Shown in pieces: positions 2,864 to 37,020 of a DNA stretch of 64,000 nt. This DNA is from Lachnospiraceae bacterium (GTDB lineage: Bacteria; Bacillota_I; Bacilli_A; RFN20; CAG-826), in NCBI GenBank assembly GCA_963643725.1, contig CAVILR010000003.1, forward strand, positions 4,578 through 68,577, in the 5' to 3' direction. The translations under genes were made by a program, and so were the position numbers. Position 1 is the first letter of the stretch. Each line of letters begins with the position of its first letter. Under the pieces are notes generated by a model. That model had not been told where the DNA came from. It worked only from the letters and a program-made list of their open reading frames with translations, and did not search any database.

Positions 2864-3787
2864 ATGTTTAAATGTAAATCACCTATTAAATTAAGAGAAA
2901 TAATCATCGCTGGACTTATTGGTTTAACGATTTTTATTCTCGGGCTAGTTTTTGATCAAAAGTTCACTCAATCAGTTTACAATGCAACTGAGACAAATAC
3001 GTTTGGTATATTTTTCTCAGGTATAGCTGAACTTCCAATTTGCTTTGCATTAACCTTCGGCGGCATTTCGTTAATTGTTTATCGCCCTAAAACGTTGAAA
3101 AAAGTGTGGGAAGTTTTATCAATTATCGTCGGCATTATCGCCATCCTCGCATCGACATATTTCACCTATGATACGTGGTGCGATTTCTATTCGTTTAATA
3201 ATACTGAATCGTTAAAAACGTTATTCGTCATCACCGGAATTATCTTCACATTATTATTCCAAGCTATCACGATTATTTATGTCATCTTTTTCACAAAAAA
3301 TAATAATCCGAGAACGATGTTATTGCTTGGTTTAGTGTTCATCGCCTTAGCCTTAACTATTGCAGTAGCTGGAACAGCGATGAAATATCTTTGGAGTCGT
3401 CCTCGTCCTCGCTTTATCTATGATCCAGACAATTATCATCCAGAACTATTCCGTAATGCCTGGGAACTAAATCCATTTGAAGCATTTAAAGTAGAGGTCA
3501 GTAACAACTATAAATCCTTCCCGAGCGGTCATAGCATATATTCCGCATCGGCAATGTTTGTTTTGCCATTATTAACATTAACTAATGACGAGATGAAAAG
3601 TGATAGACGTCTACAAGTCATCCTCTTCTATGTTGGCTTATTATGGGCATTACTTTGTGCTTTTTCGCGCGTTTATGCCGGGGCGCACTTCCTCAGCGAT
3701 GTTGGGGCAGGCTTCTTAGTTACCTATATCATCGGTTCATTAGGCATTTATTTTATATTCAAAGATAAAAAGGCAGAAACCCTTTAA
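2864..3787 (+). CDS. PAP2 family membrane phosphatase
   Basis: All three PAP2 motifs are present: KYLWSRPRP, PSGHS and SRVYAGAHFLSD. Several hydrophobic segments. AAGGAG SD upstream. Confidence 0.8.
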   Translation: MFKCKSPIKLREIIIAGLIGLTIFILGLVFDQKFTQSVYNATETNTFGIFFSGIAELPICFALTFGGISLIVYRPKTLKKVWEVLSIIVGIIAILASTYFTYDTWCDFYSFNNTESLKTLFVITGIIFTLLFQAITIIYVIFFTKNNNPRTMLLLGLVFIALALTIAVAGTAMKYLWSRPRPRFIYDPDNYHPELFRNAWELNPFEAFKVEVSNNYKSFPSGHSIYSASAMFVLPLLTLTNDEMKSDRRLQVILFYVGLLWALLCAFSRVYAGAHFLSDVGAGFLVTYIIGSLGIYFIFKDKKAETL

Positions 3788-3791
3788 AATC

Positions 3792-4964
3792 ATGGAACAA
3801 GAGCGAGAAAATCAATCTTCAACACCTGAAGAAGAATTATTAGAAAATCCTAATAAAAAGAATAAAAAGAAATTGATTTCCAATATCATCTTTTTATCAT
3901 TGCTTACCATTTTGGTTTTTGTCCTTCTTTTCAATATCGGCGATTTTAACGATATGAAGCAAAGCTTCCTAAGCATTGGAAGCAATTATCAATATTTCTT
4001 AATCGCCATTGGACTAACGATATTATATTTTGTGATTTGGCCATTCAGCCAATGCATATACGCCAAATCGATGGATGCGGAAGCAAGCATCGCTGAAAGT
4101 TATCTCATCGGTTGCTCTGAGCACTTTTATAACGGCATAACTCCTTTTGCCGCGGGCGGACAACCATTTCAAATTTATTCATATACAAAATGTCATGTTA
4201 AAACCGCCAAAGCGACAGGCATCATCTTGGCCTCCTTTGTGACTTTTATGATCGTCACGAACCTCTTTGCATTAAGTTCGCTATTTTTTGCAAAAGAACT
4301 TTGGGATGGATTTGTCGTTTTAAATAGTCAAGCCACGATTGTTGTTGCCGTCATCGGCATTACCATCAATTTCCTAGTTTTGATATTCATGTTTGTTTTA
4401 GGAACAAGCAAGAAATTAAGGCAATTCTTGGTTAAAATCTTCACAAAAATAGTAAATTGGAAGATATTTCATAACCCGAAAAGAAAATTACTCTCGCGTT
4501 TTGGCGACTTCTTAGTCAAGCAAATTCCCGCATTTGAAGAATATTGCACAAACGCTCAAATTGCCTTCAAAGAAGTCTTTAACCATAAGCGAGCATCCAT
4601 TCTTGCGATTATTGTTAAGATTATCGACATGGCGATTTATTATATGGTTCCTTTTTTCCTTCTTAAATCGGTCGGGATAGAAATTGGCTTTGAAAAACTA
4701 ATATTAGTCACCTTCACCACTTCCTTTGCAATTAATGCCGTCGTCTGGATGCCAACACCAGGGGCAACAGGCGGCATTGAATTCGCCTTTATGTTCGCCG
4801 TCGCGGCAGCTGTTGGAAGAGCAATCGACGGAGCGGGCGTCGCTTTATTATGGCGATTATTAACCTTCTACTTAACAATTATCTTAAGTTTTATATCAAA
4901 TTTAATCCTCGAAGCACACATTCGTCGCAAGGTGAAAAAAGAAGAGGCGATGAAAAATGTTTAA
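3792..4964 (+). CDS. LPG-synthase-TM / MprF-flippase-like (UPF0104) membrane protein
   Basis: Polytopic protein with the C-terminal PTPGATGGIEF motif characteristic of this family. Starts 4 nt after the PAP2 stop. Confidence 0.7.
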   Translation: MEQERENQSSTPEEELLENPNKKNKKKLISNIIFLSLLTILVFVLLFNIGDFNDMKQSFLSIGSNYQYFLIAIGLTILYFVIWPFSQCIYAKSMDAEASIAESYLIGCSEHFYNGITPFAAGGQPFQIYSYTKCHVKTAKATGIILASFVTFMIVTNLFALSSLFFAKELWDGFVVLNSQATIVVAVIGITINFLVLIFMFVLGTSKKLRQFLVKIFTKIVNWKIFHNPKRKLLSRFGDFLVKQIPAFEEYCTNAQIAFKEVFNHKRASILAIIVKIIDMAIYYMVPFFLLKSVGIEIGFEKLILVTFTTSFAINAVVWMPTPGATGGIEFAFMFAVAAAVGRAIDGAGVALLWRLLTFYLTIILSFISNLILEAHIRRKVKKEEAMKNV

Positions 4965-6777: not shown

Positions 6778-7902
6778 ATGATAAATAAACCTGATTACAA
6801 CAACTCCATCGTCAATCTCTCAAATTCAATATTGAAGCGTTTTAATGTTGAACCATTTCATAATTCATTAGATAAGATTGATGAATTAATAAAGGATAAA
6901 AAGAAAATAATAGTTTTCTTATTCGATGGTCTAGGAAAATGCATCATCGAAAAGCATTTAAAAGAAGACTCGTTTCTCCGCAAGCACAAAATCATGGATA
7001 TAACCTCAACTATGCCTCCGACGACAGTTGCTTCAACAAATGCCTTTTTAAGCGCAAAATATCCTTCTGAAACAGGTTGGTTAGGTTGGACACAGTATTT
7101 TAGTGAACTCGATAAATCGATTAATGTCTTCACTAATTATATCGATAATGAACACAAGCAATTAGAAGGCGATAACTACATGAAAAAGGTTGCTAGTTAT
7201 CCAACAATTGCGGATTTAATAAATCAAAAACATGGTAATAATCCAGCAAACCTTATATTTGGCTATCCCGTCGATAAAGAAAATAAGAAAGTTAAAAAGC
7301 TCAAATCATTTATCAAATATGCATATGAAGTAGCCAGTAGCAAAGATGAAAGTTTCACCTATGCTTATTGGTGCTCTCCTGATTGTTTGATGCATAAATT
7401 TGGGACGACTAGTTTTATAGTTCATCAAAACATTAAACGTATCGAAAAATTAATAAAACACTATTCCAAGAAGCATAAAGATGTCACCACTATACTAATT
7501 TCAGATCACGGCATGAAGGATGTTAAATTCATCGATATGAATCAATATCCAGATTTAATAGACACACTCGTTAGACCATCAACATTTGAAAAGCGTTGTG
7601 CAAACTTCTATGTTAAAAAAGGGCGAAATGAAGATTTTGAGAAACTCTTTAAGAAATATTATGGTAAGCATTATGAGCTTTTTACTATTGAGGATGCAAT
7701 TAAAGAAAATCTCTTTGGCATCGGTAAGCCTAGCAACATAGCAAAAAGATTTTTCGGCGATTACATCGCAATTTCAAAAGACGAATATTCCTTGGATTAT
7801 ATTAATAAGAAAGACAAGAAACGCGTTAAATTTAAAGGGCACCACGCCGGTGGCACCCTCGAAGAAATGATGATTTCAATTATTGGAATAGAAGGAAATT
7901 AG
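6778..7902 (+). CDS. Alkaline-phosphatase-superfamily protein (phosphodiesterase/nucleotide pyrophosphatase-like)
   Basis: Metal-ligand-like pattern FLFDGLG ... TSTMPPTTVAS ... ISDHGM ... GHHAGG. No SD seen before the ATG. Confidence 0.6.
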   Translation: MINKPDYNNSIVNLSNSILKRFNVEPFHNSLDKIDELIKDKKKIIVFLFDGLGKCIIEKHLKEDSFLRKHKIMDITSTMPPTTVASTNAFLSAKYPSETGWLGWTQYFSELDKSINVFTNYIDNEHKQLEGDNYMKKVASYPTIADLINQKHGNNPANLIFGYPVDKENKKVKKLKSFIKYAYEVASSKDESFTYAYWCSPDCLMHKFGTTSFIVHQNIKRIEKLIKHYSKKHKDVTTILISDHGMKDVKFIDMNQYPDLIDTLVRPSTFEKRCANFYVKKGRNEDFEKLFKKYYGKHYELFTIEDAIKENLFGIGKPSNIAKRFFGDYIAISKDEYSLDYINKKDKKRVKFKGHHAGGTLEEMMISIIGIEGN

Positions 7903-9056
7903 ATTTTCCTAATTCTGCCATCTAAAGAATGAAGTCTAATCGAGCCTCCTTGAGTGGCCACTAATCCTCTTGTATAGTGAATAGCTTCTTCTTGTGTTGC
8001 AAAAACCTTAATCGCTTTTTCTCCACCCGCTAATTTGACTTGCCATTTGCCGAGCAAGGATTTAGTCGTAGAAATATGATAGACGCGGACACCGCCATTA
8101 TAGGTAGCGGAGGTTGGTCTAATAGGAGTTTTAGCGACTGGTTTAGCCTCTACTTTTGTAGCAGGTTTTGTTTCTACCTTACTAACAGGTTTAGCAGCAG
8201 GTTTAGTTTCTTGTTTAACGACAGGTTTAGCCTCTACCTTACTAACAGGTTTGGCAACTGGTTTAGCCTCTTGTTTAACGACTGGTTTTGCTTCTTTCTT
8301 TTGAGGAGCTACATCATTAGTCTTTGTTGTAGTAACGGTAACACCACTTGTTGGAGCTTCTTTTTCTTCAACTGCATCTGATTTCTTGTTAGTTAAATGG
8401 TAAGACGCTAAATTAATAGCCCACCAAATATTTGCTAAAACATATGAACCAACGAGCATAATTGCAATGGCAATCGCCATTCTTACCATATTGACTGAAT
8501 TCTCATTGCCTTCGTGAACAAAATTATAAATATCAAATTTGGTGTCTTGCATTCCAAAGATAAGACCAATGTAGACGCCTCCATAAATTAAAACAGGAAG
8601 AACGCTGCACCATGTCCAACGCCATTTAATTTTAGTTTCAACATCAAATAGGACGAAACCAATAATTGCCACAGCAGGAGCAAGAACATGTAAGAATAAA
8701 TTCGCACCTTGATAGCTAATAATGTTTGAATCATTAATGCCCCAAAGTGGCGCTAAAAAGGTAGCAACTGTAATTAACGTAACGCTAATCGCTGTCACTG
8801 CAGCTAGTTTAAGTTGAATTAGCCATTGAGGTAATGGTTTGTTTTCTAACATGTAAATCGAACCGACAATTAGAAAGATTAAACCAACAATTGCCAAGAA
8901 AATGTTCGAATTAAGGGTGAATGGTAGATAAGGACTCACCAAGCCCGCATCAGTAAGCACATATTCATTGACGTAAAGAGCGATGCCAACTAGAGATAAG
9001 GCAGTTGCAATGAGTGTGAAACTGATACTTAGGATTTTTTTGACTTTACTTTTCAT
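7899..9056 (-). CDS. Multi-pass membrane protein fused to a C-terminal DUF2188 domain by a K/P/V/A repeat linker
   Basis: About 220 aa of hydrophobic segments, then KPVVKQEAKPVAKPVSKVEAKPVVKQETKPAAKPVSKVETKP..., then a DUF2188-like end GKWQVKLAGGEKAIKVFATQEEAIHYTRGLVATQGGSIRLHSLDGRI. Overlaps the rarA stop by 11 nt. Confidence 0.6.
   Translation of the reverse strand: MKSKVKKILSISFTLIATALSLVGIALYVNEYVLTDAGLVSPYLPFTLNSNIFLAIVGLIFLIVGSIYMLENKPLPQWLIQLKLAAVTAISVTLITVATFLAPLWGINDSNIISYQGANLFLHVLAPAVAIIGFVLFDVETKIKWRWTWCSVLPVLIYGGVYIGLIFGMQDTKFDIYNFVHEGNENSVNMVRMAIAIAIMLVGSYVLANIWWAINLASYHLTNKKSDAVEEKEAPTSGVTVTTTKTNDVAPQKKEAKPVVKQEAKPVAKPVSKVEAKPVVKQETKPAAKPVSKVETKPATKVEAKPVAKTPIRPTSATYNGGVRVYHISTTKSLLGKWQVKLAGGEKAIKVFATQEEAIHYTRGLVATQGGSIRLHSLDGRIRKI
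8128..8296 (-). repeat. In-frame tandem repeat, ~60-bp unit, ~2.7 copies (encodes the K/P/V/A linker)
   Basis: 8174-8233 and 8234-8293 align at offset 60 with few mismatches (ctaccttactaacaggttt.gca.c.ggtttag..tcttgtttaacgac.ggttt). A partial copy lies at 8131-8173. Confidence 0.8.
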
Positions 9057-13193: not shown

Positions 13194-14042
13194 ATGGATA
13201 TCTATTCATTAATTGCATCGCTTAAAAATAAAGGAGAAGATGCTTATCTAGTAACAGTTACCGATAAAAGCGGTATGGCTCCATCAGATGTTGGGAAAAA
13301 GATGGTCGTTTTGTCTAACGGTGAATCATTTGGTACGATCGGCGGAGGAGCTATTGAGCATTATGCGATAGAGAAATGCAAAAACTCATTTATAGATAGA
13401 ACCTCATTTAGTGAAAAATATCTTCTTATGGATAAAGATGTCCAAGTAGATAATGATGAAGTAAAACTTGAAATGGCATGTGGAGGAAAAGCAACACTTT
13501 TCTATGAATTCATCGGCCCTAAACAACATGTATTCGTTTTTGGCGCCGGCCACTGCGGCAAAGCATTATGCGCTTTACTTAAACCAATAAATTTCCATGT
13601 TACTGTTATTGATAACCGACAAGAATTACTCGATGAAATCAAAGATAACGCCGATGAAATTAAATGCATAGAATTCGATAAATTTGTAAGTGATAATGTT
13701 ACTAAATTAAATAATTCCTATATAGTTGTTGCCACGCCAAGTCATAAATATGATTATGAAGTGCTAGATAAGATTTTTGCATTGCATATTAAGCCCGCTT
13801 ATTTTGGTATGCTATGTAGCAAGAAAAAAATAAGTGATTATTTATCAAAAATATATGACCAGTATGGCAAAGATGTTGACCTATCAAACTTCTATTCGCC
13901 AATTGGTTTAAATTTAGGCGGTGATTCGCCAGAAGAAATTGCCGTTTCAATCGTAAGCGAAATATTATCAATATATTATAAAAAAGATAAGTTAATGCAC
14001 ATGCGAGATAAGATTAATAACTGCAATAAATCTTGTGACTAG
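13194..14042 (+). CDS. XdhC/CoxI family accessory protein
   Basis: N-terminal XdhC_CoxI-like AYLVTVTDKSGMAPSDVGKKMVV...GTIGGGAIE and Rossmann segment HVFVFGAGHCGKAL. Confidence 0.75.
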   Translation: MDIYSLIASLKNKGEDAYLVTVTDKSGMAPSDVGKKMVVLSNGESFGTIGGGAIEHYAIEKCKNSFIDRTSFSEKYLLMDKDVQVDNDEVKLEMACGGKATLFYEFIGPKQHVFVFGAGHCGKALCALLKPINFHVTVIDNRQELLDEIKDNADEIKCIEFDKFVSDNVTKLNNSYIVVATPSHKYDYEVLDKIFALHIKPAYFGMLCSKKKISDYLSKIYDQYGKDVDLSNFYSPIGLNLGGDSPEEIAVSIVSEILSIYYKKDKLMHMRDKINNCNKSCD

Positions 14043-14153
14043 TTTGTTCAAATTTCGCAATTTAGAATTTAAATCACAAAACAATCACTGATAATGAACC
14101 AACTGTTTTAGCATTGTTATTTCACGTTTTGCCCTTTTTGAGAAATAATTTGC

Positions 14154-14308
14154 GTTGTTTAGCGTTGTCGAGTGTTGTCAAAAATGCCAATTTGTTGTCT
14201 AAATAGCAAAAATGTTGTCAGGCGTTGTCGAGTGTTGTTGAGTGTTGTTGAATGTTGTCAAATGTTGTTGGAAACACTAATTTGTTGTTGAAAAGGCAAA
14301 AATGTTGT
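14154..14308. repeat. Strictly 10-bp-phased array of 12 GTTGT cores (consensus decamer ARTGTTGTYR)
   Basis: GTTGT starts at 14154, 14164, 14174, 14194, 14214, 14224, 14234, 14244, 14254, 14264, 14284 and 14304, all in the same decamer register. The four empty slots are related to one another (aaaatgccaa, aaatagcaaa, gaaacactaa, aaaaggcaaa). No ORF, and the period is not a multiple of 3. Confidence 0.9.
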
Positions 14309-14635
14309 CAAAAAATTGTTAGAAACGAACTGAAATATGAATAGAAATTAAACACTTCATTCAAACCGCGTTGTCTAATCATTTTGCTCGAAAAAATCAT
14401 CGTGCTTAGTATTTGATTCTGAAGGAAACAATAGAAAATTATTAAATAAGAAACATCTTATTAATTTTTCAACATATTAATAGGCACAATGAAAATACCT
14501 TCTTTAGTGGTATAAGCAGGACCGCACGCGGTGATAATCATGCAGAAACTAGGTTCCTTTCGATTATTTTGTTTAATTCTATTTTTCAAATTAGTAAAGG
14601 TTGAAATATTATTAGAGATCTCTTGTCAATAAAAA

Positions 14636-14680
14636 TCCCCCACTTTCTTTTACATATTTTCCCCCCACTTTCTTTTACAT
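14636..14680. repeat. Tandem direct repeat, 2 x ~20 bp (TCCCCCACTTTCTTTTACAT)
   Basis: Copy 1 at 14636-14655 and copy 2 at 14660-14680 (one extra C), separated by ATTT. About 120 bp downstream of the tRNA-Ala 3' end. Confidence 0.85.
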
Positions 14681-14744
14681 GGACTGGTAGCCTAAAAGTA
14701 GACACACAGCATACAATTCAGCCTTTACGAAAATGTGGAGAACC

Positions 14745-14790
14745 CAAAATAAAAAGGCTGTTCACTACGTTATGTTTCCTAACAGCCCTT
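14745..14790 (-). terminator. Terminator downstream of tRNA-Ala (also usable on the + strand)
   Basis: Stem ggctgtt (14756-14762) / aacagcc (14781-14787) with an 18-nt loop. On the minus strand it is followed by TTTTTATTT. Confidence 0.5.
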
Positions 14791-14800
14791 TTTATCAAAA

Positions 14801-14876
14801 TGGTGGATCTGACCGGGATCGAACCGGCTACCTCCTCGTTGCGAACGAGGCGCTCTCCCAGATGAGCTACAGACCC
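14801..14876 (-). tRNA. tRNA-Ala (anticodon CGC)
   Basis: The reverse complement GGGTCTGTAGCTCATCTGGGAGAGCGCCTCGTTCGCAACGAGGAGGTAGCCGGTTCGATCCCGGTCAGATCCACCA folds as a 76-nt cloverleaf. It has the G3:U70 Ala identity pair, anticodon loop TTCGCAA, a GTTCGATC T-loop and an encoded CCA. Confidence 0.9.
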
Positions 14877-16553: not shown

Positions 16554-16669
16554 TATATTGAGCGTATGATACCTCTTGAGATGATGTGCCCCCCTTACTT
16601 CTTCATCACCTCAAGAAGTAACTGCTCGTTTTATATAAATATAATTTGTCATTTGGCATAATAATAAAG

Positions 16670-17236
16670 ATGAAAATTTCAGTAGAAAAAGCATTATTAA
16701 AACTCCAAGATGGCGACACTAACGCTCTCGCGGATATTTATGATGCGACTAGTCGAGGCGTCTTCACATTCATTCTTCCAATAGTTAAAGACTACGCTCT
16801 TGCGGAAGATGTTATGGAACAAACCTATATCGCTATCTATGAGAAAATCAATCTTTATAAACCTAAATCAAATGGTCGAAACTGGATTCTTACAATCGCT
16901 AAAAATCTAGCAATTAATGAGTTCAATAAGAACAAAAAATATGTCGACTATGACTACAACGAAGAAAAGGTTATTCCTGAAGGATTATATTCACTTGATG
17001 ATAGTTTAGACACGCCGACAATTAAATTAGCAAACGAAATATTAAGCGAAGAAGAATTCAATATTCTCATCATGTACACAATCGGTGAATACAAACATCG
17101 TGAAATTGCAGAATTACTACATTTACCATTAGGCACTGTTACATGGAAATATAAAAATGCTCTGCAAAAACTTAGAGATGAACTAAATAAGAGGGAGACA
17201 AATGAAGCGAAACGACTTAGAGAAGAAAATCGTTAA
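16670..17236 (+). CDS. Sigma-70 family (ECF-type) RNA polymerase sigma factor
   Basis: Region 2 (AEDVMEQTYIAIYEKINLY...WILTIAKN) and region 4 HTH (REIAELLHLPLGTVTWKYKNALQKLR). The ATG at 16670 is preferred over the TTG at 16646. No SD. Confidence 0.8.
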   Translation: MKISVEKALLKLQDGDTNALADIYDATSRGVFTFILPIVKDYALAEDVMEQTYIAIYEKINLYKPKSNGRNWILTIAKNLAINEFNKNKKYVDYDYNEEKVIPEGLYSLDDSLDTPTIKLANEILSEEEFNILIMYTIGEYKHREIAELLHLPLGTVTWKYKNALQKLRDELNKRETNEAKRLREENR

Positions 17237-18920
17237 TGAAGCTAATCGCATAGTCCCAAATAAGATTAACAAAATCTATGAAAGACTAGGCATTAGTTTT
17301 ATCGATGAAAAAATTGACGCTTCATTAGAAAAGAAGATTGCTAAAGAAGGTAATGTATTAATAAAGAACGTTCGTCGTCCTGATATCGTTTCAAAAAATG
17401 ACGAATGGTCTAGCTTCTATGAAAAGAAGATTGCATCTGAAAAGAAACAATTTGTTCCAGATGTTAAAGATAAAATTGGAATCAAAAAGACCAATCCTCT
17501 CCTCGCCTTCTTTAAAAAGCCTGGTTTCATCGCTGGTTTTTCAACCGCCTCAATTGCAATCATCTGCTCATCTATCATCATCGTCAATAGTTTAAATAAA
17601 ATAATTGATACGCCAGACAATAGCTCATCAATTAATTCAACGACGACAACAATTGATGATAACAGTGGCGTTGATGAGGTAATCGAACTCAAAGGAAAGA
17701 GCACGATTAATTTTAAAGTTACATCCGCGAGTGAAAGCTATAAACCAGAAGTAATTTATTCAGTTAACACAACTGGCTACATTGATAATGGCTCAATCGT
17801 TTCCGCCAACGACGCTTCAGCAAATATTCTTAATGATTTCGATAATAACGAAGTAACAAAATTAGACTCTAATAAGCAATATACTATACCTACATTTACC
17901 GGCAATTATTTAAAAAGCGCCTTAAATCTTGGATATCTTGAAAGAAAAGATGCGAGCAAGGCAAATGTCATCACTTTAAAAATAAATGCTGGCAAAGAAG
18001 ATGAACAATATTATGAAACTATGAAGAAAAATCTTGAGAGTTCCATAAATGAATTCATGTATGAAAATAAGGTAATAGCAAAATTTGAAATAGTTGCTGA
18101 GACAAGCGCAGTCGAAGATGATGAGAAAACGCAACTCATCCGACAAGCATATGAAATATGCAATACGTTATTTGTTAATTCAAACGGAGAAGTTAATAAG
18201 GTTTTATGTTTTTCCACTAATTTCGATGATTGGCTAATTAAATACGCCGATTATTCAATCGAAGACCTTCAAGAATATGTCGATATGCTTCTATATATCT
18301 CGAGCATGATATCTAACGATAGTAACAAAGATGAATTTATTAATAGCCTTGCCGATTGCGTTTCAATGCAAGAAAAAATTTATGAATTAAACGATCGTTA
18401 TGAAAAACTTTCAGACTTATACGAAGATGTCTTAGATAAATTAGAAGGTGACGATGATCACGATGAAGATGATGATTTTGTTAAGCCGGACGATAAAGAC
18501 GGATATGATTGGGATTGGTGGGATGATGTAGGTCATAATCACGGTCATGGTGATAAACCACATAAGAATAAACATCACGATGATTATTACGGTGACGATA
18601 GGGTTGAACCATCCGATGAAAACTATGAGATATTCATCAATGATATCGATACTTTCTTAACTAATAATCAAAATATCGATTCTAAAACCAATGATGAACT
18701 TTATAGTTTATGTTCTCAAATACGCGATTATTCAAGGCAAATTTATGACTTTTATTTCTACTATGAAGAAAAAATAAATAGAACGATGAATGATATTCTT
18801 ATTTCATTAGATAATGGCGATTATAATAACGGTCATCCAAACGATGATAGGCCTGATAATGATTGCCCACCTGATTGGGATGATGACTTCGACGATTGGT
18901 GGGGTCATCACCATCATTAA
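17202..18920 (+). CDS. Putative anti-sigma factor: single-pass membrane protein with Asp/His/Trp-rich extracytoplasmic modules
   Basis: GAGGGAG SD, and the start overlaps the sigma gene by 35 nt. Three N-terminal EKKI repeats and a TM segment GFIAGFSTASIAIICSSIIIV. Two acidic modules, ...DGYDWDWWDDVGHNHGHGD... and ...PPDWDDDFDDWWGHHHH (C-terminus). Confidence 0.55.
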   Translation: MKRNDLEKKIVNEANRIVPNKINKIYERLGISFIDEKIDASLEKKIAKEGNVLIKNVRRPDIVSKNDEWSSFYEKKIASEKKQFVPDVKDKIGIKKTNPLLAFFKKPGFIAGFSTASIAIICSSIIIVNSLNKIIDTPDNSSSINSTTTTIDDNSGVDEVIELKGKSTINFKVTSASESYKPEVIYSVNTTGYIDNGSIVSANDASANILNDFDNNEVTKLDSNKQYTIPTFTGNYLKSALNLGYLERKDASKANVITLKINAGKEDEQYYETMKKNLESSINEFMYENKVIAKFEIVAETSAVEDDEKTQLIRQAYEICNTLFVNSNGEVNKVLCFSTNFDDWLIKYADYSIEDLQEYVDMLLYISSMISNDSNKDEFINSLADCVSMQEKIYELNDRYEKLSDLYEDVLDKLEGDDDHDEDDDFVKPDDKDGYDWDWWDDVGHNHGHGDKPHKNKHHDDYYGDDRVEPSDENYEIFINDIDTFLTNNQNIDSKTNDELYSLCSQIRDYSRQIYDFYFYYEEKINRTMNDILISLDNGDYNNGHPNDDRPDNDCPPDWDDDFDDWWGHHHH

Positions 18921-30951: not shown

Positions 30952-31097
30952 TCCATTATCCATAAGTGTTAGTAATATTATCATATTTTTGACCTATTAA
31001 AAAGAATGCAAACCATCAATTAATAAATATTATTAAAAAACGCATTTTGGCTTTTATAGAGAGAGGATAAATTGTATAATCAATGCGGAATAATTTT

Positions 31098-32855
31098 ATG
31101 AGTTATAAAGCATTATACAGAACCTACCGTCCAAAAACATTTGAAGAAGTCGCTGGGCAAAAACATGTTGTTAAAACATTAAAAAACGCATTAGAAAATA
31201 ATAAGATAGCGCACGCCTATCTTTTTGCTGGTCCTCGTGGAACAGGGAAAACGACAATGGCCAAGCTCTTTGCAAAAGCTTTAAACTGTGAACAAGGCAT
31301 TGGCCATCAATGCAATCAATGCTCAAATTGTGTCGAAATAAATGAAGGAACGCATCCAGATGTTATTGAAATTGACGCGGCGAGCAACAATGGTGTCGAA
31401 CAAGTTCGTGAATTAATAGATAAGGTTAATTACTTGCCAATCAAAGGGAAGTATAAAGTTTATATCATCGATGAAGTTCACATGATGACAACTAACGCGT
31501 TTAATGCATTATTAAAAACGCTTGAAGAACCGCCAAGCCATGTCATTTTCATTCTTGCTACAACAGAACCCCACAACATCATCCCAACGATTATCTCCCG
31601 ATGTCAAAGATACGATTTTACTAAAGTAAGCGATGATGATATTTATGAAAGAATGGTCGAAATTCTTCATCACGAAAACATCGAATTTGAGGATAAAGCG
31701 GTGAGAGCGATTATCTCCTTAGCCGATGGTGGAGTTCGCGATGCTTTATCAATTCTTGATCAAATCCTCGCCTATAGCGGTTCGTCACTAAAAGAAAAAG
31801 ACGTATACGATTTATTTGGTCTAACATCCGTTGAAGAAAAAGTATCTTTATTAAAAGCTATAAATGAAGGCGATATGCCCTTGTGCCTAAATAAAATTAA
31901 TTCCTTTTTCCAAGCCGGCGTTGATTTAAAGCGATTAACAAACGATTTATTAGAAATATTAAAAGATGTTTTGATCATCAAAAAGACAAACGATGAAACC
32001 GAACTATCAATTATTGATGAATTAACTGCGACATCGCTAGCGTCAATCTTTGATTACAAAACACTTAATGAGATGATATCGACATTTTTAAAAGCTCAAA
32101 CCGATTATAAAAATGTTAATAACATTAAAACGATGTTCGAAGTTATCGTCCTGCGGCTAGCAACGATGAAAGATGATAAAGAAAAACCTATCATTAAACC
32201 TGCTCAACAAGAAATAAAAGTGACTAAGCCAGTTTCTACATCAGCAAATGAAGAAAAGCTTATCGAAAAAGAAACGGATTCTCCACAATCTACTAGCAAA
32301 GAAAAAGAAGAGATTAAACCTCAAATAGAAGAAGTTAATAAAGAACCCATCGAATCGCCAAGTGAAAATGTTACAAAAGACAACGAGGATCCAGACTGGT
32401 TATTCGATGATGATAACGAGAAAAAAGCGGTCGCCAGCGAAGGTGAGCATTACGAACTTGATGATGATGTAATTCTAAAATTAATGGTCTTAGGCGATAA
32501 AGCAGAACGTAAAAACCTCATGAGTCGCTGGAACGAACTTAATTCCTATATCAATCACCCCTCCTTTGGAGATGTCATCGCTTTACTTAAAGATGGGAAA
32601 CCATTCATCGTTAGCAAAGAAGCGATTATACTCGAATATGATTTCTCAAAATTAGCAGATAAAATCAATATTAAAACTAACGCCGATACAGCCGCGGAAA
32701 TATTGAGCAAAATGCTCGGAAGAATGGTCTTTGTCTACGCGATTTCACGTAGCGAATCTGTTCGCCTTATCACCGCGTTTAATAATTTAAGGCAGATATC
32801 AAAACTCCCAAAAGTAGGAGAAATACAATTAACATTGGAGGATTTAAAGAAATGA
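31098..32855 (+). CDS. dnaX: DNA polymerase III subunit gamma/tau
   Basis: YRPKTFEEVAGQKHV, GPRGTGKTT, Zn module CEQGIGHQCNQCSNC, and ISRCQ. The ATG at 31098 is preferred because the ATG at 31083 sits 2 nt after a TATAAT. Confidence 0.93.
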   Translation: MSYKALYRTYRPKTFEEVAGQKHVVKTLKNALENNKIAHAYLFAGPRGTGKTTMAKLFAKALNCEQGIGHQCNQCSNCVEINEGTHPDVIEIDAASNNGVEQVRELIDKVNYLPIKGKYKVYIIDEVHMMTTNAFNALLKTLEEPPSHVIFILATTEPHNIIPTIISRCQRYDFTKVSDDDIYERMVEILHHENIEFEDKAVRAIISLADGGVRDALSILDQILAYSGSSLKEKDVYDLFGLTSVEEKVSLLKAINEGDMPLCLNKINSFFQAGVDLKRLTNDLLEILKDVLIIKKTNDETELSIIDELTATSLASIFDYKTLNEMISTFLKAQTDYKNVNNIKTMFEVIVLRLATMKDDKEKPIIKPAQQEIKVTKPVSTSANEEKLIEKETDSPQSTSKEKEEIKPQIEEVNKEPIESPSENVTKDNEDPDWLFDDDNEKKAVASEGEHYELDDDVILKLMVLGDKAERKNLMSRWNELNSYINHPSFGDVIALLKDGKPFIVSKEAIILEYDFSKLADKINIKTNADTAAEILSKMLGRMVFVYAISRSESVRLITAFNNLRQISKLPKVGEIQLTLEDLKK

Positions 32856-33151
32856 ACATGCAACAAATGCTAATGCAAGCACAAAAAATGCAACGCGAGC
32901 TTAAAAAGGCGCAAGAAGCGTTGAAAGAAAAAGAATTTACTGTTTCAAAAGGCGGCATGGTTACCATCGTTATGAAAGGCGACAGAACATTAGTTTCACT
33001 CGACATCGACAAAGATGCATTGAGCGAAGATAGCAAAGATATGGTGCAAGATGCACTTGTTTTAGCTATCAATGAAGCATTGAGCCAAATCGAAAAAGAA
33101 AGCGAAGCCATAAATGAGCAAATAACCGGACGAACCGGAGGCATATTCTAA
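32852..33151 (+). CDS. ybaB: YbaB/EbfC nucleoid-associated protein
   Basis: 99 aa, MNMQQMLMQAQKMQRELKKAQEAL... In the conserved dnaX-ybaB-recR order. Confidence 0.9.
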   Translation: MNMQQMLMQAQKMQRELKKAQEALKEKEFTVSKGGMVTIVMKGDRTLVSLDIDKDALSEDSKDMVQDALVLAINEALSQIEKESEAINEQITGRTGGIF

Positions 33152-33154
33152 AGA

Positions 33155-33751
33155 ATGAAAGAACTAAAAAGCATTATTAGATTAACCGATTCATTCGAGA
33201 AATTCCCTAGCGTAGGTCATCGCTCTGCCGAGAAAATGGCCTATTCCGTTTTAAATATGAAAGATGAAGATGTTAACGAACTAATCAATGCTTTAAAAGA
33301 CATAAAAGAAAAAGTTCATAAATGCCCTAGATGTGGCAATTTCACCGAGGAGGAATATTGCTCTATTTGCTCTGACGTCAATAGAGAGCAAAACAAATTG
33401 ATTGTTGTATCATCTCCGAAAGATATCGAATCGTTTGAAAAACTAAATTCCTATAACGGCTTATATCACGTCATCGGCGGAACGCTTAAAGCGAGTCTCT
33501 CTGTCGGCGCGGACGATTTAGCGATAGAGGAATTGATCAAACGAGTTGAAAACGAAAATATCGTGGAAGTAATACTTGCAACAAATCCAACGATTGATGG
33601 CGAAACTACGGCATTATATATCGCTAAATTATTGGAAAATAAAAATATCAATGTTACGCGACTAGCCTATGGACTTCCGATGGGCGGATATCTTGAATAT
33701 GCAGACTCTTTGACTTTGTCAAAGGCGTTAGAGGGAAGGAAGAAAATTTAA
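33155..33751 (+). CDS. recR: Recombination protein RecR
   Basis: Cys4 finger CPRCGNFTEEEYCSIC and a Toprim segment. Confidence 0.95.
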   Translation: MKELKSIIRLTDSFEKFPSVGHRSAEKMAYSVLNMKDEDVNELINALKDIKEKVHKCPRCGNFTEEEYCSICSDVNREQNKLIVVSSPKDIESFEKLNSYNGLYHVIGGTLKASLSVGADDLAIEELIKRVENENIVEVILATNPTIDGETTALYIAKLLENKNINVTRLAYGLPMGGYLEYADSLTLSKALEGRKKI

Positions 33752-33763
33752 GGGGATCAAAAT

Positions 33764-34390
33764 ATGTTTATAACAGTTGAAGGACCAGAAGGTTCGGGCA
33801 AAAGCAGCGTCATCAAAGAAGTGGCAAAAAAATTAGAAAATGATGGTGAAACAGTCGTTTTAACCCGCGAACCTGGCGGAACACCAATATCGGAAGAAAT
33901 ACGAAACGTCATTTTAGATAAAGCCAATACGAAAATGGACGGCATGACCGAAGCACTTTTATATGCAGCGAGTAGACGTCAACATCTAGTAGAAAAAGTT
34001 TGGCCTCTTTCCAAAGAAGGAAAAATTGTTATCTCTGACCGCTTCATCGACTCTTCGCTCGCCTATCAAGGTGGTGCAAGAGGTCTTGGAATAGATAAAG
34101 TCCTCGCCTTAAATATGTTTGCTACCGATGGATATTTCCCAGATTTAACACTCCTATTTGATTTAGAGCCGGAAATCGGATTAAAACGCATTGCTATGAA
34201 CGCAAATAGGGAAGTGAATAGATTAGATTTAGAAAAAATCGAATTCCATAAAAGCGTTAGAAAGACATTCCTAGATTTAGCCACTCGTTTCAAAGATAGA
34301 TACGTTATTATCGATGCTTCTAAGCCATTTGATGAAGTTGTTGAAGATGCGTATAACACAATTAAAAACAAATTACATAAATGCAGATAG
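33764..34390 (+). CDS. tmk: dTMP kinase
   Basis: P-loop FITVEGPEGSGKSS and DRFIDSSLAYQG. Confidence 0.95.
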   Translation: MFITVEGPEGSGKSSVIKEVAKKLENDGETVVLTREPGGTPISEEIRNVILDKANTKMDGMTEALLYAASRRQHLVEKVWPLSKEGKIVISDRFIDSSLAYQGGARGLGIDKVLALNMFATDGYFPDLTLLFDLEPEIGLKRIAMNANREVNRLDLEKIEFHKSVRKTFLDLATRFKDRYVIIDASKPFDEVVEDAYNTIKNKLHKCR

Positions 34391-35361
34391 AAAAATATTT
34401 ATCACAATATCAACCAGTTATTTATAAAACTTTTATTAATGCGTTAAAGTCTAATCATCTTTCGCATGCCTATCTCCTCAGTGGTGCGTCTGGTATGCCA
34501 TTAAAAGAAAGCGCGATGTATTTAGCAAAAAGTTTACTATGCGATAGTCCAAATCCTCTCGCCTGTAATAATTGCATCACCTGCCTTCGCGTAGATGAAG
34601 GAAATTACGCCGATATAATCGTCGTCGACGGAAGCGAGAGCAAAATCAAAAAGAATGAAGTGACAAAAATCATTGAAAATTTTGATAAAACATCTTTAGA
34701 GGATAAAGGCATCATGATTTATGTCATCCATCTAGTGGAAATGATGACACCTGTAGCGATTAATTCACTGCTTAAATTCTTAGAAGAACCTGGTAGAAAT
34801 ATCTATGCCTTCTTAACGACTGAAAACGAATCAAAAGTGCTACCAACAATTCTTTCCAGAACGCAGATATTGCGCTTTAAAAGCATCCCTCGAGAAGAAA
34901 TAATAAAAGATGCAATCGAAGAAAATGTTTCATTAGAAGATGTAGAAATGCTTTGCAGTTTCTATAGCGATGGCAATTCGATTAAAAATGCATCTGAAAG
35001 TGAAAACTACCAAATAGCTAAACAAGCATTAGATGATTTGTTAGATGGACTATTACTCAATGAAGGTGAGGCAATTTATGCGATGCAGCGCCACGTGATA
35101 CCATCATTAAAAAGTACTGAATTAGTTAAAACATTTCTTAAGATGCTCGCTTCAATCTATGAAGATATATTGAATATAAATATTAAACAGCCAATTAAAC
35201 TGACGACTTATAGTAAAATAATAGAGGAATTAGCTAAAAAGCTAAAACATATCGATAAAAGCTTGTATATAATCATGTCATCAATTCAAAAAGTAGATTT
35301 AAATGTCAATTTAGGTCTACTGCTCGATCACGTGATATATGAGTTAATCGCGGAGGAATGA
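34381..35361 (+). CDS. holB: DNA polymerase III subunit delta-prime
   Basis: LSHAYLLSG, Zn motif CNNCITC and LSRTQILRF. Confidence 0.85.
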   Translation: MQIEKYLSQYQPVIYKTFINALKSNHLSHAYLLSGASGMPLKESAMYLAKSLLCDSPNPLACNNCITCLRVDEGNYADIIVVDGSESKIKKNEVTKIIENFDKTSLEDKGIMIYVIHLVEMMTPVAINSLLKFLEEPGRNIYAFLTTENESKVLPTILSRTQILRFKSIPREEIIKDAIEENVSLEDVEMLCSFYSDGNSIKNASESENYQIAKQALDDLLDGLLLNEGEAIYAMQRHVIPSLKSTELVKTFLKMLASIYEDILNINIKQPIKLTTYSKIIEELAKKLKHIDKSLYIIMSSIQKVDLNVNLGLLLDHVIYELIAEE

Positions 35362-36191
35362 TTATGAATTATTACGTTTCAATAAAGTTTGCTAACGCTG
35401 GGAAAGCCTATTTCTTTAGCAGCGATATCGGTGATTTAAAAATTGGAGATAAAGTCGTCGCTGAATCAGTAAGAGGACTTCAAGTTGGCGAGGTAGTTAG
35501 CGAGGTAACTCCAATAAGCGAATATAAAAGCCAATTAGAACTTAAACCGATATTAAGAAGGGCAAACGAAGATGATTTGCTCATCTATGATGAAAACAAA
35601 AAAAGAAGCAAGGAAGCGCTGAAGATAGCGAATAAAGAAATCGAAAATCTCGGACTAAATATGCATCCAATCGAAGCGGAATACACGCTCGATGGAAGTA
35701 AATTAACCATCGTCTACGTCGCTGATGAACGCGTTGATTTTAGAGAATTGTTAAAAATCCTCGCCTCGCGTTTTCATTGTCGAATCGATTTAAGACAAAT
35801 TGGTTCACGCGACAAGGCAAAAATGATTGGCGGAATCGGTATATGCGGATTGCCTCTATGTTGCAAATCATTTTTAAATAACGCGGAAGGCATTTCCATA
35901 ACAAGAGCTAAAAATCAGATGCTATCGCTAAACATTCCAAAACTTTCTGGCCACTGCGGCAAATTAATTTGTTGCCTATTATATGAAGACGATGCTTATA
36001 CTGAACTCAAAAAAGACTTCCCTAGAATAGGTGATACATTCAAAAAGGGTGATACGTTATATAAAGTAACTGGTATTAATGTTTTATCGAGAATGGTAAA
36101 AATTGAAAATGAAGAAGAAATAAACACCATCTCCTTAAAAGAGCTAAAAGAGCAATATAAAGGTAAGAGCAATGCGGGCAAAAAGTTTTGA
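35358..36191 (+). CDS. ricT: PSP1-domain protein RicT/YaaT
   Basis: PSP1 domain with Cys cluster GICGLPLCCKSF...GHCGKLICCLLYE. Confidence 0.85.
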   Translation: MIMNYYVSIKFANAGKAYFFSSDIGDLKIGDKVVAESVRGLQVGEVVSEVTPISEYKSQLELKPILRRANEDDLLIYDENKKRSKEALKIANKEIENLGLNMHPIEAEYTLDGSKLTIVYVADERVDFRELLKILASRFHCRIDLRQIGSRDKAKMIGGIGICGLPLCCKSFLNNAEGISITRAKNQMLSLNIPKLSGHCGKLICCLLYEDDAYTELKKDFPRIGDTFKKGDTLYKVTGINVLSRMVKIENEEEINTISLKELKEQYKGKSNAGKKF

Positions 36192-37020
36192 TAATACAAA
36201 ACCACTTCTTTATCTAGTGCCAACGCCAATTGGTAATCTCGACGAATTTTCGCCTCGCGCATTAGAAGTTATTAAAAATGCCGATATAATTGCTTGCGAA
36301 GACACAAGAGTTACCCACAAATTGCTGGCGTTTTTCAATATTTCAAAACCTTTAGTGTCTTTAAGAGAGCATAACGAAGTAGAGCAATCAAACTATATAA
36401 TCGCTGAAATTAAAGCAGGTAAAAAAGTTGCATATATGTCAGATGCAGGTTATCCATGCATTTCCGATCCTGGTTCAAGATTAGTTAAACTAGCGCTAGA
36501 AAATGATATCAACGTCTCCTCACTAAGTGGTCCAAACGCGGCATTAAACGCTCTTGTCGCATCTGGGATTGATGCATCGCATTTCTATTTTCATGGTTTT
36601 CTCGACGCAAAGGAAAGCGTTCGCAAAGAAGAATTGAGAAAATTATTCAATAAAGAAGAAACATTGATTTTCTACGAATCACCACATCGCATCCAAAAGA
36701 CCTTAGCCAATATGCACGAAATATTAGGAGCAAGGAAAGCGTGCATTGCTCGCGAACTAACAAAAATCCACGAAGAATTTATTAGGGCTAACTTAAAAGA
36801 ATTGATGGAAATCGAACCAGACACTCTAAAAGGTGAGATGGTGCTTATCGTTGAAGGCAAAAGTAAAGAGATAAAACCACATATCGAAAATACTGAGCTC
36901 TTAAAAATGGTGTCCTCATTAACCGAAACTGGACTTTCCACAAAAGATGCAATTAAACAAGTCGCTGAGCTAACTAATGTAAGCAAAAATTACATCTATA
37001 AAATTTATCACATCAACTAA
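36172..37020 (+). CDS. rsmI: 16S rRNA (cytidine1402-2'-O)-methyltransferase
   Basis: LYLVPTPIGNLDEFSPRAL and DAGYPCISDPG motifs. Confidence 0.9.
   Translation: MRAKSFDNTKPLLYLVPTPIGNLDEFSPRALEVIKNADIIACEDTRVTHKLLAFFNISKPLVSLREHNEVEQSNYIIAEIKAGKKVAYMSDAGYPCISDPGSRLVKLALENDINVSSLSGPNAALNALVASGIDASHFYFHGFLDAKESVRKEELRKLFNKEETLIFYESPHRIQKTLANMHEILGARKACIARELTKIHEEFIRANLKELMEIEPDTLKGEMVLIVEGKSKEIKPHIENTELLKMVSSLTETGLSTKDAIKQVAELTNVSKNYIYKIYHIN

Follow-up and report, generated by a model that had tools for sequence, protein, structure and literature searches.

The stretch of DNA considered here, called the window and 64,000 nucleotides in length, carries an array of short, evenly spaced direct repeats in one of its intergenic spacers. 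A preliminary description of the same DNA had taken this array for a candidate protein-binding site, centromere- or iteron-like, and thereby raised the question of what such an array does in this place and to which gene, if any, it belongs. Comparison with related genomes points to an answer. The array is probably the orphaned promoter and iterated-operator region of a lost gene cassette, which would have encoded an ATPase-nuclease of the 'DUF1703' architecture.

Twelve exact GTTGT cores are present on the plus strand, starting at 14154, 14164, 14174, 14194, 14214, 14224, 14234, 14244, 14254, 14264, 14284 and 14304, and all of them share one exact 10-bp register. The interval 14150-14320 comprises seventeen 10-bp slots, twelve with GTTGT at the same offset and four with fillers of two related kinds (AAAATGCCAA / GAAACACTAA and AAATAGCAAA / AAAAGGCAAA). 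TTGTT occurs at 14114 and 14316, and a thirteenth GTTGT at 14370 lies out of the array register. Apart from the out-of-register GTTGT, these elements had been described before, and each was recovered. In 2000 shuffles of the 758-bp spacer, the number of cores in the same register never exceeded 2. GTTGT occurs 57 times on the plus strand across the 64-kb window, where the next densest 200-bp stretch after the array has four. GTTGT-N5-GTTGT occurs seven times in the window, always within the array, against an expected 0.06. Autocorrelation, which had been proposed as a check of the periodicity, gave self-match peaks in the spacer at lags of 10 (0.43), 20 (0.57) and 30 (0.40), compared with approximately 0.25 elsewhere, and TRF and a repeat finder reported array periods of 10 and 20. 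The spacer contains no ORF as long as 43 aa. The array is real, non-random and non-coding.

The spacer is bounded by the 3′ end of an xdhC-like gene (plus strand) on the left and by the 3′ end of tRNA-Ala(CGC) (minus strand) on the right, and its features are collected in Table 1. Beyond the tRNA gene follow genes for a Y-family polymerase, a YolD-like protein and an ECF sigma factor. The remaining window is of a housekeeping nature (fba, mgsA, uvrB, prfB, secA, prfA, dnaX-ybaB-recR-tmk-holB, metG and others). Pfam and NCBIfam scans found no partition, replication, integrase, excisionase or recombinase gene anywhere in the 64 kb; for partition, replication and recombinase genes, the preliminary description had stated this of the vicinity of the array.

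Table 1. Features of the array, its spacer and the bordering genes in the window.
Feature	Position	Strand	Basis or remark
xdhC-like gene (XdhC_CoxI + XdhC_C)	13194..14042	+	Pfam, NCBIfam; left anchor for finding orthologous loci
Array lead-in, conserved	14111..14149	+	Among the best-conserved stretches of the window-L321 alignment
Promoter-like TTCACG-17-AATAAT	14121-14149	+	Transcription would start at the first unit; L321 equivalent 3827-3855
Array part 1, colinear with the sister-lineage array	14150..14220	+	Slot table, L321 alignment; three units, AAAAATGCCA-type filler, one unit, AAATAGCAAA-type filler, one unit
Extra units GGCGTTGTCG, AGTGTTGTTG and start of the next, joining the 67-nt modules	14221..14243	+	Repeat finder, slot table
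Array part 2, diverged duplicate of 14154-14220	14244..14310	+	Repeat finder
Residual promoter-like TTGAAA-17-AAAAAT, last unit in its spacer	14288..14316	+	Promoter scan
Scar region, ~110 bp in place of the sister lineage's 1.8-kb gene	14317..14430	+	blastn mapping
Right flank common to the sister lineage, 77% identity	14431..14800	+	blastn map
tRNA-Ala(CGC), right anchor, 3′ end towards the variable spacer	14801..14876	-	ARAGORN, Rfam

The possibility of a catalogued repeat or MITE family, raised in the preliminary description, was rejected, as was an Rfam family: the array is a single locus without dispersed copies in the 64-kb window, the repeat finder detected no inverted repeat flanking it, and Rfam at gathering and permissive thresholds returned tRNA only. 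Among known motifs, the Spo0A 0A-box, CtsR sites, PhoP/WalR-type direct repeats, the DnaA box, Tus-Ter (GTTGTAAC) and ECF -35/-10 elements derived from CAAC...CGAC were likewise rejected for mismatches at key positions or for their period.

Orthologous loci were found by XdhC protein search, with homologues at 99%, 93% and 81% identity. L320 (XdhC 99%) has the same gene-less array of 12 units and matches the window at 99.4% identity across 686 bp. In L321 and L322 (XdhC 93%), which represent a sister lineage, the left synteny of fba, isochorismatase and xdhC is kept, and L321 extends to tRNA-Ala. Both have an orthologous plus-strand array of eight GTTGT units, arranged as 3, filler, 1, filler, 1, filler and 3. 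The L321 array keeps to a 10/20-bp lattice and leads directly into GTTGTATTATTGTTCCAGGAGTAAGAATTATG and a gene that was called as 572 aa. A promoter scan of L321 found TTGTCG-17-TATTAT (3941-3969) overlapping the last units, followed by AGGAG and an ATG; the weak TTGAAA-17-AAAAAT of the window has the matching position.

The L321 gene (3989-5656) lies between the two blocks that match the window. By blastn, window 13902-14248 corresponds to L321 3607-3964 (85%) and window 14431-14849 to L321 5793-6199 (77%). The alignment is colinear from the xdhC stop across seven slots, after which the window has extra array units and the scar region in place of the 1.8-kb L321 gene. The scar region gives no more than weak local alignments with L321 and contains, besides the out-of-register GTTGT, a 4-codon ATG remnant at 14338. 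No remnant of an L321-type protein was found in the window by tblastn or with a family HMM. Judged by this alignment, the window array is shown to be the orthologue of the gene-proximal array in the sister lineage. By the same comparison, the window copy is an orphan of the cassette and not an intact member, because the gene is absent and the weak TTGAAA-17-AAAAAT alone is left. The earlier statement that the array has no linked gene is thus true of the window, where the gene appears to have been lost, but not of L321, in which the ATPase-nuclease gene comes right after the array. That the gene was lost here, and not gained by the sister lineage, is judged from the shared array and a weak resemblance of the ATG region.

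More distant loci (XdhC 49-71% identical) keep the xdhC - tRNA-Ala - polymerase synteny, tRNA-Ala being syntenic in L001 and L002 as it is in L321, with a spacer that varies from 350 bp in L002 to 2.1 kb with a lipoprotein gene in L001. The slot at the tRNA 3′ end therefore appears to be a variable region. A phased motif in orthologous spacers, on which the preliminary description had made its reading depend, is present in L320, L321 and L322 but absent, as is any similar spacer, from loci with XdhC of 71% identity or less among GTDB representatives and JGI metagenomes.

A search of relatives for the array and a linked gene had been suggested, and in L321 and L322 it led to a gene with PF09820 and PF08011 domains. 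The L321 product matches PF09820 (AAA-ATPase_like) at 1e-38 and PF08011 (PDDEXK_9) at 3e-13. Its AF2 model (pLDDT 89) was matched by Foldseek to the STAND/AAA+ proteins Avs3, Apaf-1-like Dark, NLRC4 and RdrA, and also to the CinB/CidB nuclease domain. As modelled, the protein of ~555 aa is a STAND/AAA-like ATPase fused to a predicted PD-(D/E)XK nuclease, which is the 'DUF1703' architecture. It has no recognised sequence-specific DNA-binding domain beyond the STAND-type helical/winged region. Some symbionts have an expanded DUF1703 family (PMC6387759), and the ATPase domains listed for defence systems such as RADAR RdrA include PF09820 (PMC10952713).

Gene callers begin the ORFs of L321 (3938-3988), P0241, P0242, P0251, P0253 and P0364 inside the repeat array. 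The mis-called starts lengthen the N-terminus by 15-30 spurious residues, with V, C, L and S prominent among them, and lengths of 572-585 aa are called for real lengths of about 555-559 aa. For L321, the true start is most likely MDKKPVPLG, as read from the sequence, which gives 555 aa instead of 572.

The recurrence of the array was read indirectly, by back-translating such mis-called N-terminal extensions of homologues. P0251 (61% identical) has the N-terminus MLQGVVKRCSVLYHIP (MLQGVVKRC...), its cluster-mate P0364 has MLQGVVWCCTMLQGVAACCSMLYHIP and P0253 has MFDVAERCLALYLVD. Back-translation of these three 60-61%-identical homologues yields GTTG(T/C) cores every 10 nt and then a TATAT-like box; in P0364, the cores are at 3, 13, 23, 33, 43, 53 and 63. 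The array can thus be inferred upstream of homologues that are 99-100% and about 60% identical. No such array was found at 6 plasmid loci and 42 distinct viral-contig loci of family members with 30-37% identity. A family-wide array for PF09820 was therefore rejected, and the array would be a trait of a subfamily, not of all PF09820 genes.

Two variations were met within the wider family. Longer PF09820 + PF08011 members of about 625 aa (L325 267-500 on Butyrivibrio pNP243, and P0330) carry an N-terminal HTH_17 (excisionase/MerR-like) DNA-binding domain, so that DNA binding is explicit in part of the PF09820 + PF08011 family. On the Selenomonas ruminantium plasmid pSRC6, a PF09820 ATPase gene is directly preceded by a long palindrome (L330 411-478) of three 9-bp TTGGATA-type units and their three inverted copies, a different repeat solution with the same gene family.

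According to the reading preferred here, a single-gene cassette for the ~555-aa PF09820 + PF08011 protein would once have stood between xdhC and tRNA-Ala. In the window lineage, the coding sequence would have gone and the array would have been left as an orphan, reaching 12 units via duplication of a module of ~67 bp. Each decamer core would be one putative binding site. On sites of the same orientation one helical turn apart, a sequence-specific protein could polymerise head-to-tail along one face of the DNA and thereby govern the promoter at the 3′ end of the array. Candidates for the binder are the product of the cassette itself and a host factor. A cooperative protein-binding operator is the most likely function, and in this sense the protein-binding array of the preliminary description persists as the best reading, with constrained cores, while its centromere or iteron label is not borne out, no par or rep gene being present. 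The preliminary description had also read the array on the minus strand. The three TTGACA hexamers noted there do exist within the array; however, our own reading of the sequence found no usable -10 for them at 16-18 nt, the promoter scan listed no minus-strand promoter inside the array, and the orthologue points to the plus strand. The biologically relevant strand is thus most likely plus (GTTGT). Since the window array now has no gene to control, it is most likely a relic of recent date, which could still serve as a titration site at most. Counted against the operator reading were the absence of a recognised sequence-specific DNA-binding domain from the L321 protein beyond its STAND-type region, the absence of arrays from the members with 30-37% identity, and the second conserved promoter-like site upstream of the array, present in the window and in L321, which could serve a transcribed 5′ leader or RNA.

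The locus would then be a variable slot beside a tRNA gene, from which a candidate defence-type ATPase-nuclease gene has been lost and in which its control region is left. The natural gene-plus and gene-minus alleles, together with the array sequence and a predicted reader helix in a second family described below, offer a testable handle on the regulation of such ATPase genes.

The GTTGT/GACAAC motif alone does not identify the binder, because phased arrays of this core also stand beside unrelated genes in phage contigs and in E. coli P4/PICI-like islands. Pattern scans of genome and viral collections (GTTGT-N5 x4, a YR/RRY-restricted version and GACAACA-N3 x3) were set aside, as they returned mostly unrelated near-perfect VNTRs or phage arrays. 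Nevertheless, a second gene family was met through a generic pattern scan, in which two Lachnospiraceae loci had a decamer array before homologous ATPases of ~350 aa. This Orc1/Cdc6-like family (Pfam ATPase_2/AAA_16) has 2224 homologues at E<=1e-10. Ten out of ten independent loci carry a decamer array of 4-9 units with spacings of 10 and 19-20 bp and AT-rich fillers, often with TTGAAA; the last unit lies between the -35 and the -10. These loci (L277-L299, for example L279 1850-1980, L277 1390-1460 and L295 1385-1470) come from gut and rumen Bacillota.

The cores of the Orc1/Cdc6-like arrays differ among paralogues (ATGACAAA, ATGACAACAA, ATGATAAA, ATGACCAA and GGTTGTAAAA) and vary together with the predicted recognition helix (NSAIQVY, NSKYQVY, NGNLQTY and SNQFTVY). 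An AlphaFold model of the family (pLDDT 89) is nearest to PABY2304 and to archaeal Cdc6/Orc1, with a DNA-bound structure among the latter. On this model, the C-terminal winged helix is a candidate reader of the repeats.

The likeness to the window array extends to the 10- and 19-20-bp lattice, the single orientation, the AT-rich fillers and the last unit inside the promoter. Some members use ATGACAACAA (other strand TTGTTGTCAT) or GGTTGTAAAA, which have the same core, and the loci are likewise single-gene cassettes in housekeeping surroundings, in gut and rumen Bacillota. In contrast, the protein belongs to another family, in which profile comparison with the L321 protein was weak and detected P-loop similarity only, and it has a winged-helix reader candidate where none is evident in the DUF1703 protein. 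The family indicates that decamer lattices of this kind recur as control elements of single-gene ATPase cassettes in these bacteria, and it offers the best model for the working of the window array. Loss of an Orc1/Cdc6-like gene from the locus itself was rejected; tblastn and HMM searches found neither such a gene nor a remnant of one in the 64-kb window, and the sister lineage has a different gene.

Phased decamer arrays thus stand before the genes of two uncharacterised P-loop ATPase families, a link that is reproducible and apparently undescribed. The literature searched gave no description of a GTTGT/ACAAC/TGACAAC array or of phased arrays upstream of PF01637, PF09820 or PF08011 genes. 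A wider reading, to be held only tentatively and considered rather unlikely as a whole, would join the two: DUF1703 and Orc1/Cdc6-like cassettes of gut and rumen Bacillota would share one control architecture, the 10-bp-phased decamer array, with a core that co-varies with the protein, an ATPase that itself polymerises on the array, and orphan arrays that persist and even expand as trans-acting platforms.

The nested duplication noted earlier is evident: the module 14154-14220 recurs at 14244-14310 with 78% identity over 67 nt. Duplication of this module is the best explanation, on sequence grounds, for the 12 units of the window. The two modules differ at 15 positions, none of them in a GTTGT core (P=9e-4). 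Between the window and L321, 70 colinear bp contain 11 differences, every one of them outside the 25 core positions (P=0.008). Within the 12 units, departures from the consensus number 24 and are confined to the five flank positions, and 60 of 60 core positions are intact. The pattern of substitutions indicates that the GTTGT core is constrained while flanks and fillers drift.

Perfect cores and growth of the array after loss of the gene could mean that the orphan is still functional. In that case it would act in trans, offering a binding platform, a decoy or a titration site to a protein whose gene lies at another place in the genome, such as a paralogous DUF1703 product or a winged-helix Orc1/Cdc6-like ATPase that reads GACAAC-type decamers. 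The intact core positions and the 12 units, compared with 8 in the gene-linked orthologue, would fit such a use. The minus-strand units (TGACAACA), the 10/20 lattice and the T-rich fillers resemble Orc1/Cdc6-like arrays of Bacilli and Lachnospiraceae MAGs, and local alignment of the window array with that of L279 scores 22, compared with 9.4 +/- 1.3 in shuffles (z ~9). A suitable paralogue could also reside elsewhere in the genome, as one MAG can hold several Orc1/Cdc6-like genes (L020 + L297). However, neither a DUF1703 nor an Orc1/Cdc6-like gene occurs in the 64 kb (tblastn, HMM), the working strand indicated by the orthologue is plus, and decamer arrays with GACAAC/GTTGT adjoin many unrelated genes in phage contigs. 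Continued use in trans is therefore regarded as unlikely.

The same data bear on a neutral origin, by which the array would be a decanucleotide minisatellite (VNTR) made by replication slippage and bound by no factor. The change in copy number from 8 to 12 between lineages, the clear internal duplication and the commonness of GTTGT-core decamer tandem repeats in many unrelated genomes would all be expected of a VNTR. Yet in three independent comparisons no substitution falls in the 5-bp core, a constraint that is not the behaviour of a neutral minisatellite. Moreover, the array is kept upstream of genes that are just 60% identical, and its units are heterogeneous with fixed filler slots, unlike the near-perfect VNTRs returned by the pattern scans. 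A neutral repeat is thus quite improbable.

Several known systems resemble the array in form. The heptad arrays bound by the omega protein of pSM19035 are iterated direct-repeat operators occupied cooperatively by one repressor. Type II parC centromeres (R1, pSK41), which are bound by ParR, are 10/11-bp or 20-bp direct repeats containing the promoter of the operon. KfrA of plasmid RA3, likewise a cooperatively binding repressor, has five 9-bp repeats over its own promoter (PMC7783346). Like the KfrA and omega operators, the array has short units of the same orientation about one helical turn apart that overlap the promoter of the adjacent gene, with unit number and arrangement that vary. Unlike them, its linked gene encodes an ATPase-nuclease and no small DNA-binding protein, and is absent altogether from the window. 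The lost gene is itself a member of the DUF1703 family (PF09820 + PF08011), although distant members of that family lack phased repeat arrays.

With type II parC the window array shares direct repeats of one orientation with a period of about 10-11 or 20 bp. It differs in having no parM/parR, in its chromosomal housekeeping context (fba, secA, prfB, uvrB, dnaX-recR-tmk-holB) and in that the orthologous L321 array precedes a DUF1703 gene. Unlike the iterons of replication origins, it is accompanied by no rep gene in Pfam scans, and no DnaA-box-like 9-mers were seen on reading the array. A free-standing plasmid or phage centromere (parC-like) or iteron set, possibly derived from a mobile element that decayed at the tRNA gene, would nonetheless agree with phased direct repeats near a tRNA 3′ end, with spacer content that varies among relatives and with the 10-bp-phased GTTGT array found between int and an alpA-like gene in E. 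coli P4/PICI-like islands. However, neither the window nor the orthologous L321 contig has a par, rep, int or xis gene, no partial duplication of the tRNA end (a sign of an att site) was found, and the search of plasmid and phage collections that had been proposed gave no blastn match for the spacer. The L321 array, moreover, abuts an ATPase-nuclease gene and no partition or replication gene. The tempting reading as a chromosomal centromere or iteron set is thereby removed for this window, its probability being very low.

Just as improbable is an RNA element, in which the array would be transcribed from the upstream promoter-like site as a GUUGU-repeat 5′ leader or a protein-sponge RNA: TTCACG-17-AATAAT is conserved directly 5′ of the first unit in the window and L321, and the predicted RNA is essentially unstructured, as in sponge RNAs, but there is no Rfam match and no terminator, folding of either strand is no better than that of shuffles (z = +0.65 and +0.86), the exact 10.0-nt lattice is a feature of the DNA helix with no obvious RNA rationale, and in the analogous Orc1/Cdc6-like ATPase family the promoter is at the 3′ end of the array.

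A possible small RNA lies elsewhere in the spacer, at 14620-14797 (plus strand), with a promoter-like TTCAAA-16-TATTAT (14585-14612) upstream. In this part of the right flank are two perfect copies of the 19-nt direct repeat CCCCCACTTTCTTTTACAT (14637-14655 and 14662-14680), C-rich motifs, and a hairpin followed by a T-run beside the tRNA gene and shared with it. The second copy differs in L320 (CCCCTAGTTTCTTTTACAT), and L321 has one diverged copy. Rfam gave no match for this candidate.

Elsewhere in the window, a 385-aa ORF (7899-9056, minus) that ends in a DUF2188 domain contains, at 8130-8295, a tandem repeat with a period of 60 (2.8 copies, sub-periods of 12, 24 and 36), presumably a coding repeat. 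An ECF sigma gene, just past the Y-family polymerase and YolD pair, is followed by a start-overlapping 572-aa ORF (together 16646-18920), for which Pfam and NCBIfam gave no match and which may encode an anti-sigma or membrane partner. No CAAC...CGAC-type motif lies upstream of the sigma gene. At 31083-37020 is the cluster dnaX - ybaB - recR - tmk - holB - PSP1(yaaT) - rsmI-like. A cluster of the dnaX-ybaB-recR type is origin-proximal in Bacillus subtilis, and by analogy the window may adjoin the chromosomal origin. The GC skew of the window mainly follows gene orientation.

Phased arrays were also met in other genomes. The array of the E. coli P4/PICI-like islands reads CCCGTTGTTC CATTTTGTTC CTTGTTGTTC GTCGTTGTGT CTCGTTGTTT CACGTTGTCC in 10-bp phase and lies between the int 3′ end and an alpA-like HTH gene (L213 about 1256-1316, minus; L276 about 3185-3245, E. 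coli NCTC86). Of 5426 complete E. coli genomes, 830 carry this array. In viral contigs (L311 170-410 and L316 240-530), GTTGTCA/TGACAAC decamers crowd the phage intergenic regions and occur in either orientation, and L311 holds ATGTTGTCAAAAAAATGCCA, which is close to GTGTTGTCAAAAATGCCA of the window.
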